From the NCBI RefSeq assembly GCF_055900595.2, contig NZ_CM148325.1: DNA of 64,000 nt. One strand, 5' to 3'. Below are positions 42,139 through 42,247 of this stretch, one piece after another (within the stretch, counting starts at the first letter, position 1; each line of letters starts with the position of its first letter). A model generated the notes under the pieces. The model was not told the DNA's origin. It did no database searches and was given only the letters and a program-made list of their open reading frames with translations. Both the position numbers and the translations under genes were made by a program.

Positions 42139-42146
42139 TCCGCCCC

Positions 42147-42183
42147 CTGGGTGTATATACAGTTATGCTGTGAGTATATACAG
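42147..42183. promoter_or_regulatory. Two tandem LexA boxes (CTGGGTGTATATACAG at 42147-42162; CTGTGAGTATATACAG at 42168-42183) in the lexA promoter
   Basis: Both match CTG-N10-CAG with a TATATA core; placed directly upstream of lexA as expected for autoregulation. Confidence 0.8.
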
Positions 42184-42247
42184 CAAAAGGCGATTTTGGA
42201 ACCATAAACTGCACAATAAACCAGAGATTTATCGAATTCTGGAAGGG

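Follow-up and report, generated by a model that had tools for sequence, protein, structure and literature searches.

This locus raises the question of how much of the RNA that starts at the lexA promoter reaches dinF, the next gene downstream, and whether anything between the two genes sets that share. The window, i.e., the whole 64-kb stretch of DNA that was analysed, carries dgkA, lexA and dinF in this order on the minus strand, according to both the open reading frames and the RefSeq annotation:

42248..42616, minus strand: dgkA coding sequence (diacylglycerol kinase), the upstream neighbour; open reading frame, Pfam DAGK_prokar and RefSeq annotation
41530..42138, minus strand: lexA coding sequence, 202 aa plus stop; open reading frame, TIGR00498, Pfam and identity to RefSeq LexA
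40132..41457, minus strand: dinF coding sequence, 441 aa plus stop, MATE family transporter; RefSeq, NF007690 and N-terminal alignment of 53 loci

The region is very probably a piece of E. coli chromosome in which an autoregulated lexA promoter is followed by a lexA-dinF transcription unit with a leaky hairpin, a 72-nt spacer and attenuated read-through into dinF. The lexA product (ATG at 42138..42136, TAA at 41532..41530) scored 289.5 bits against TIGR00498 (cut-off 110.95), and it combines an N-terminal DNA-binding domain (PF01726, LexA_DNA_bind) with a C-terminal autopeptidase domain (PF00717, Peptidase_S24). Its sequence is that of E. coli LexA in the compared RefSeq genomes (L001 and L002), with 100% identity. 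The 921-bp segment around lexA (41380-42300) is present as a single copy in 5425 of 5426 complete E. coli genomes and is 100% identical to that of strain Z0117EC0005, isolated from a dog in South Korea. Identity of at least 99% was found in only 18 of the 5425 genomes and about 97% in the others, indicating that the window belongs to a minority lineage of E. coli. An earlier note on this DNA, made from the sequence, had named lexA, dinF and tandem LexA operators with implied autoregulation; this identification was right and agrees with published work on the identical sequence.

The autoregulated lexA promoter

The stretch 42139-42247 is precisely the 109-bp intergenic region between dgkA and lexA. 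Read in the direction of transcription, its features are as follows:

42209..42224, minus strand: third CTG-N10-CAG element, CTGGTTTATTGTGCAG, upstream of the -35 hexamer; 7.4 bits, arms poorly conserved
42196..42201, minus strand: -35 hexamer TTCCAA of the lexA promoter, read from the sequence, in the GGTTCCAAA block kept across genera
42166..42185, minus strand: distal (upstream) LexA operator, 20-mer TGCTGTATATACTCACAGCA, with 16-mer core 42168-42183, at about -20 to -1; matrix, conservation and published operator
42173..42178, minus strand: -10 hexamer TATACT, within the distal operator; read from the sequence, invariant in the 18-genus alignment, fits the start-site numbering of PMC9210283
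42165, minus strand: approximate lexA transcription start (+1, within 1 nt), deduced from the PMC9210283 numbering
42145..42164, minus strand: proximal (downstream) LexA operator, 20-mer AACTGTATATACACCCAGGG, with 16-mer core 42147-42162, at about +2 to +21; matrix, conservation and published operator
42143..42148, minus strand: AGGGGG, a Shine-Dalgarno-like sequence for lexA that shares bases with the right arm of the proximal operator; part of the CAGGGGGCGGAATG block

Two consensus SOS boxes at 42147-42162 and 42168-42183, within about 45 bp of the lexA ATG, had been proposed. The coordinates were confirmed: the outer edge of the distal box and the A of the ATG are 45 nt apart, 8 nt lie between the proximal box and the ATG, and the box centres are 21 bp apart. 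The distal box, CTGTATATACTCACAG on the minus strand (42183..42168), is a perfect CTGT-N8-ACAG; the proximal box, CTGTATATACACCCAG (42162..42147), has one core mismatch, its right arm reading CCAG for ACAG. The proximal operator also includes a Dcm site, CCAGG (42146-42150).

The boxes were scored with a LexA position weight matrix assembled from 24 E. coli sites known from the literature rather than taken from a curated file, with the sites of lexA itself left out. Both are palindromes with an AT-rich centre, and they scored 19.0 bits (distal) and 18.9 bits (proximal), within the range of 12.6-27.1 bits spanned by the 24 matrix sites. Sites of such strength are expected by chance only 0.005-0.01 times per simulated 64-kb window, which places the two boxes far beyond chance. 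The sole comparable match in the window is the uvrA/ssb box at 26033-26052, which serves as a positive control. A scan with the full 20-mer consensus, allowing up to three mismatches, gave no match at lexA because the real lexA boxes deviate from it at 5-6 positions. Conservation was followed in a sample of 80 lexA loci across Enterobacterales, where both boxes are nearly invariant: the distal core is unchanged in nearly all loci, and the proximal core is found 8 nt from the ATG in most of them, with variation confined to its right half. When the dgkA-lexA region was aligned across 18 genera, four conserved blocks emerged, namely the -35 region (GGTTCCAAA), the distal operator, the proximal operator and CAGGGGGCGGAATG; the last, which contains the Shine-Dalgarno sequence and the start codon, is almost invariant.

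The promoter itself was placed by reading the sequence together with published numbering. Lewis et al. 2022 (PMC9210283) located Dcm target cytosines at +17, within the downstream operator, and at +45; these correspond to window positions 42149 and 42121, and the lexA transcription start therefore lies at about 42165. The -35 and -10 hexamers are separated by a 17-nt spacer. A generic sigma-70 scan of the window did not report this promoter, since TTCCAA matches only three of the six positions of TTGACA. The -10 hexamer is contained in the distal box, and by the same numbering the proximal box covers about +2 to +21, the arrangement of an operator that acts by occlusion. The boxes had also been said to overlap the ribosome-binding region of lexA. 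This is literally true of the DNA, in which the proximal operator abuts the conserved Shine-Dalgarno sequence, but LexA acts on DNA, so that the mechanistically relevant overlap concerns the -10 hexamer and the start of transcription rather than ribosome binding.

In this reading, RNA polymerase recognises TTCCAA and TATACT and starts near 42165, and two LexA dimers bind the neighbouring 20-bp operators, whose centres are two helical turns apart. The distal dimer would cover the -10 hexamer, and the proximal dimer would cover the leader from about +2 to +21 and abut the Shine-Dalgarno sequence. Jointly, the two dimers would block initiation and provide a cooperative negative feedback, to be relieved by RecA-stimulated self-cleavage of LexA.

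Two LexA operators at the E. coli K-12 lexA promoter are said to go back to the work of Brent and Ptashne and of Little and co-workers in 1981. Later papers also describe two operators (PMC9210283, PMC13288465), and LexA binding and feedback have been shown in the literature for the same operator sequence. EMSA with the identical E. coli sequence yielded a published Kd of about 15 nM for the downstream operator, and single-molecule footprints of both operators have appeared; published Hill coefficients are about 1.5-2.6, and both sites are occupied simultaneously on single molecules. Compared with the K-12 promoter (PMC9210283, PMC13288465), the window has identical operators, spacing, -10 overlap, Dcm site and ATG distance, and LexA is 100% identical. 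Nothing substantive differs; the window lineage is about 97% identical to most E. coli over the 921 bp, with the promoter unchanged. The operator architecture is that of the textbook lexA promoter and is already known, and confirming this standard example of cooperative negative autoregulation adds nothing new.

A third LexA operator at 42224..42209 would add to this picture, and we give it very little chance. The element has the CTG-N10-CAG form and is retained in Escherichia and some Enterobacter. Its score of 7.4 bits on the LexA matrix is nevertheless at chance level, about five such matches being expected per window; both arms deviate at the fourth base, and in Citrobacter and beyond the arms are gone while the T-rich core alone is kept. 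Published descriptions give two operators (PMC9210283, PMC13288465). The element overlaps a T-rich tract conserved across Enterobacteriaceae at the position of an UP element (about -58 to -43). It was rejected as a LexA operator on account of its score and of arms not conserved beyond a few genera, and it is probably not a LexA site.

Upstream of the promoter, a terminator scan from the dgkA stop codon (42248) to the lexA promoter revealed no terminator-like structure. Transcripts of dgkA may therefore enter lexA independently of LexA control.

The start of dinF

The earlier note had dinF follow lexA after an 18-bp gap with no terminator. Two further features bear on this claim:

41509..41511, minus strand: non-conserved upstream ATG, start of the 459-aa longest open reading frame, in the 5' arm of the hairpin
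41484..41519, minus strand: intrinsic-terminator-like element, a 13-bp stem with a 4-nt loop followed by a U-tract; terminator scan, RNA fold and covariation

The 18-bp distance holds only for the longest open reading frame, whose ATG at 41511 is inside the hairpin stem; it arose because that frame was taken as the gene, the same choice as in the legacy K-12 annotation ('19 bp'). RefSeq, NCBIfam and the comparison across genera all lead to 72 nt instead. In RefSeq, dinF of both the identical genome and a laboratory strain encodes 441 aa and starts 72 nt after lexA, i.e., at 41457. The product, which also has a Pfam MatE match, scored 901.9 bits against the DinF model NF007690 (cut-off 409), and its residues 1-440, counted from 41457, match positions 1-440 of the 441 in the model. 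Across 53 loci the DinF N-terminus follows the pattern M-x-x-[FL]-[TS]-x-x-DKALWRLALPMI, with the methionine at the equivalent of 41457 or a few codons away; the aligned codon is ATG in 30 of the 53. The 18 codons upstream of 41457 are unconserved and contain in-frame stops in most genera. Even within Escherichia the longer frame is not kept: E. albertii has no in-frame upstream ATG, and in a divergent E. coli (L004) a stop codon interrupts the frame nine codons downstream of that ATG. A weak AGG is found 9 nt upstream of the ATG at 41457, and no recognisable Shine-Dalgarno sequence could be read upstream of the ATG at 41511. On these comparisons, the start of dinF is assigned to 41457 (441 aa) and not to 41511. 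The legacy 459-aa start and the terminator-free junction should accordingly not be propagated; operon predictors that use the 18-19-bp distance reach the right answer here for the wrong reason.

These results weigh on a plain bicistronic operon, in which dinF would lie 18 bp after lexA with nothing between and the repressor and the pump would be transcribed at an equal rate. The longest open reading frame does begin at 41511, and several papers that follow the legacy K-12 annotation give 'a few bp' or '19 bp'. That ATG, however, is part of the 5' arm of a hairpin of -24 kcal/mol, its 18 extra codons show no conservation and are broken by stop codons in E. albertii, in the divergent E. coli L004 and in most genera, and 41457 is the start in both RefSeq and the 441-position NCBIfam model. 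Together with the RNA coverage described below, this makes a plain operon very unlikely.

The location of the ATG at 41511 within the stem also allows a reading in which the hairpin regulates translation: it would hide this ATG, and melting of the stem would be required before a DinF isoform of 459 aa, or else a short peptide encoded upstream, could be produced. From this ATG an open frame runs into dinF in the window and in a K-12-like genome. Against this, the ATG and its frame are unconserved even within Escherichia, the hairpins of other genera have unrelated sequences without an ATG, and the ATG at 41511 lacks a recognisable upstream Shine-Dalgarno sequence; we regard translational control of this kind as highly improbable.

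The hairpin and transcription into dinF

The claim that no terminator separates lexA from dinF fails at 41519..41484, where a terminator-like hairpin with a T-run is supported by covariation. The hairpin starts 10 nt 3' of the lexA stop codon. Its stem-loop (41519..41490) has 13 pairs, eight of them G-C, with a GC core at 41516..41493 and a 4-nt loop, and the terminator scan reported it as followed by GTTTTTCATC. The U-tract UUUGUUUUU at 41492..41484 has 8 U in 9 nt, so that a stable GC-rich stem-loop directly adjoins a U-tract, as in intrinsic terminators. The RNA folds with -24.1 kcal/mol, compared with a mean of -14.5 for shuffled sequences (z = -3.8); none of 200 shuffles was as stable. 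A terminator-free space between the cistrons, which defines a simple operon, is thus absent from lexA-dinF. A bidirectional terminator was considered and rejected, as the plus-strand side of the hairpin leads into CTCAGAGATATG and has no T-run. No Rfam family was found in a search of 39800-42800.

Compensatory changes indicate that the structure is upheld by selection. An alignment of ten species from five genera gave a consensus helix of nine pairs, seven of which show compensatory changes on both sides, with 95.3% of cells paired; none of 500 shuffles reached the observed covariation, and sliding the partners reduced pairing to 23-62%. The lexA-dinF spacers were then surveyed for a hairpin of ΔG <= -12 kcal/mol with a T-run. 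Among the 49 species with dinF after lexA, 24 have such an element, compared with 3.4% of dinucleotide-shuffled spacers; about half, e.g., Citrobacter, Cedecea and Pantoea, have none by this threshold. Stem sequences differ between genera, and the U-tracts are imperfect outside Escherichia. Similar hairpins with T-runs occur at the same place where dinF is not downstream of lexA, e.g., in Yersinia, Pseudescherichia and Phytobacter, which suggests, from comparative sequence, that the element is lexA's own 3' structure.

Transcription of dinF from the lexA promoter is supported by the literature. The basis for a lexA-dinF operon is Tn5 polarity (Krueger, Elledge and Walker 1983, as cited in PMC4481165 and PMC3327717). 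In published array data from 907 samples, lexA and dinF correlate at 0.86, with 'on' levels of about 11 and 9.5 log2, respectively, and RNA polymerase occupancy is published to rise over both genes on DNA damage. No strong match to the LexA matrix and no promoter-like site was found between lexA and dinF, consensus scans being weak evidence in this respect; because neither an SOS box nor a promoter of its own was detected, dinF would be expressed by read-through of transcripts from the lexA promoter. The extent of this read-through can be judged from the DirectRNA-seq data of Adams et al. 2021 for unstressed K-12. Without bicyclomycin, coverage was 322 upstream and 54 downstream; with bicyclomycin, it was 288 and 295. 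In unstressed cells, dinF RNA thus reaches about one-sixth of the lexA level, a Rho-sensitive decrease. For a plain operon, the equal coverage of dinF and lexA under bicyclomycin is a point in favour and the six-fold drop without it a point against. The same authors listed a Rho termination region whose best position, 4257949, corresponds to window position ~41304, 153 nt into dinF. Co-transcription, as proposed earlier, therefore stands in an attenuated form, reduced about 6-fold in unstressed K-12, while its premise of a missing terminator was false.

At the hairpin itself, the K-12 Term-seq lists of Adams et al. 2021 for three unstressed conditions (about 1000 ends per list) include no dominant 3' end, and the supplements of TERMITe do not mention lexA or dinF. 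The lack of a dominant 3' end, together with dinF coverage equal to that of lexA under Rho inhibition, indicates that in vivo the hairpin does not terminate efficiently by itself. We infer a leaky intrinsic terminator or an element that forms 3' ends. Two readings are live: a leaky intrinsic terminator that works together with Rho, or a 3' stabiliser for trimmed, Rho-terminated lexA transcripts.

According to the second reading, the hairpin would not terminate at all; Rho would stop transcription in the untranslated spacer or in early dinF, exonucleases would trim the RNA back to the hairpin, and the lexA mRNA would be protected. The Rho-sensitivity of the drop from lexA to dinF is consistent with this, as are a stem that covaries and a U-tract that is poorly conserved outside Escherichia; moreover, it is well established that Rho-terminated transcripts can be trimmed back to stem-loops (PMC6061677). 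Other observations do not fit as well: the curated Term-seq lists have no dominant 3' end at the hairpin, the U-tract in Escherichia is canonical with 8 U in 9 nt, and hairpins of a similar kind, with T-runs, are found at the end of lexA in species where dinF does not follow. A role purely as a stabiliser is possible, if somewhat unlikely.

If the hairpin is instead a leaky terminator or end-forming element, as inferred above, the stable covarying GC hairpin and UUUGUUUUU that come 10 nt after the stop codon in the lexA transcript would end or stabilise most lexA messages. The fraction reading through would be further cut by Rho-dependent termination early in a weakly translated dinF; the weak AGG before the ATG at 41457 is consistent with poor translation and Rho access. 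The outcome would be a membrane pump that is SOS-inducible and low relative to the repressor. It may even be, although we hold this doubtful, that the hairpin and U-run act jointly with Rho, which would work on the weakly translated beginning of dinF, as a tuned attenuator that sets the LexA:DinF ratio, so that dinF induction could depend on more than LexA cleavage. Such an attenuator would explain an abundant repressor and a scarce membrane pump from one promoter, and the extra inputs to dinF could include Rho activity or the way in which lexA translation is coupled to transcription. In the literature covered, which left the 1981 sequencing papers and curated databases outside, no description of a lexA-dinF terminator, attenuator, read-through or Rho effect was found. 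An attenuator layer at lexA-dinF is at most a modest possibility of novelty.

Related systems and other sites

The published lexA-dinF operon (PMC4481165, PMC3327717) agrees with the window in gene order and strand and in a dinF that lacks its own SOS box, and dinF expression correlates with that of lexA. These papers, however, describe the gap as a few bp and say nothing of a terminator, whereas the window has a 72-nt spacer, a covarying hairpin with a U-run, and a DinF of 441 rather than 459 aa. The element resembles canonical Rho-independent terminators in its GC-rich 10-13-bp stem, its 4-nt loop, the U-rich tract immediately 3' and its position just past the stop codon. Unlike them, it shows no dominant 3' end in the K-12 Term-seq lists and full read-through when Rho is inhibited, and would be leaky at best.

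By analogy, the locus may be likened to recA-recX, where a stem-loop likewise separates the gene of an abundant SOS regulator from a downstream gene of low abundance that is reached only by read-through from a LexA-controlled promoter. There, according to what Pages and co-workers reportedly found in 2003, a hairpin terminator follows recA and a small fraction of transcripts continues into recX. The recAX genes are treated as one unit (PMC3739934). The two cases differ in that read-through was measured for recA-recX, whereas the published drop at lexA-dinF is Rho-sensitive.

Several observations were made alongside. The SOS box at 26033-26052, TACTGTATATTCATTCAGGT, scored 20.7 bits and lies between the divergent genes ssb (25881..25345, minus strand) and uvrA (26136..28958, plus strand); it is the known shared uvrA/ssb operator. 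A weak match to the LexA matrix at 12258-12277, TACTGTCGTGAAAAACAATA, scored 11.0 bits and is probably due to chance, because the mean best score of simulated windows is higher (11.9). Within lexA, Adams et al. 2021 recorded a reproducible RNA 3' end 71 nt into the open reading frame (K-12 position 4257185, window position ~42068, minus strand) in two of three conditions. Its Rho score of 0.73 and intrinsic-terminator score of about 1.05 indicate that neither mechanism accounts for this end.

The lexA gene is not followed by dinF in Yersinia, Budvicia, Pectobacterium, Dickeya, Brenneria, Proteus, Providencia, Morganella, Xenorhabdus, Photorhabdus and Arsenophonus (loci with this arrangement: L020, L026, L027, L050-L054, L057, L058, L060-L062, L064, L065, L067, L071, L073-L077, L081 and L082). 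Thus, the lexA-dinF linkage is limited to a part of Enterobacterales, namely Enterobacteriaceae, Erwiniaceae, and some Serratia, Hafnia and Edwardsiella.
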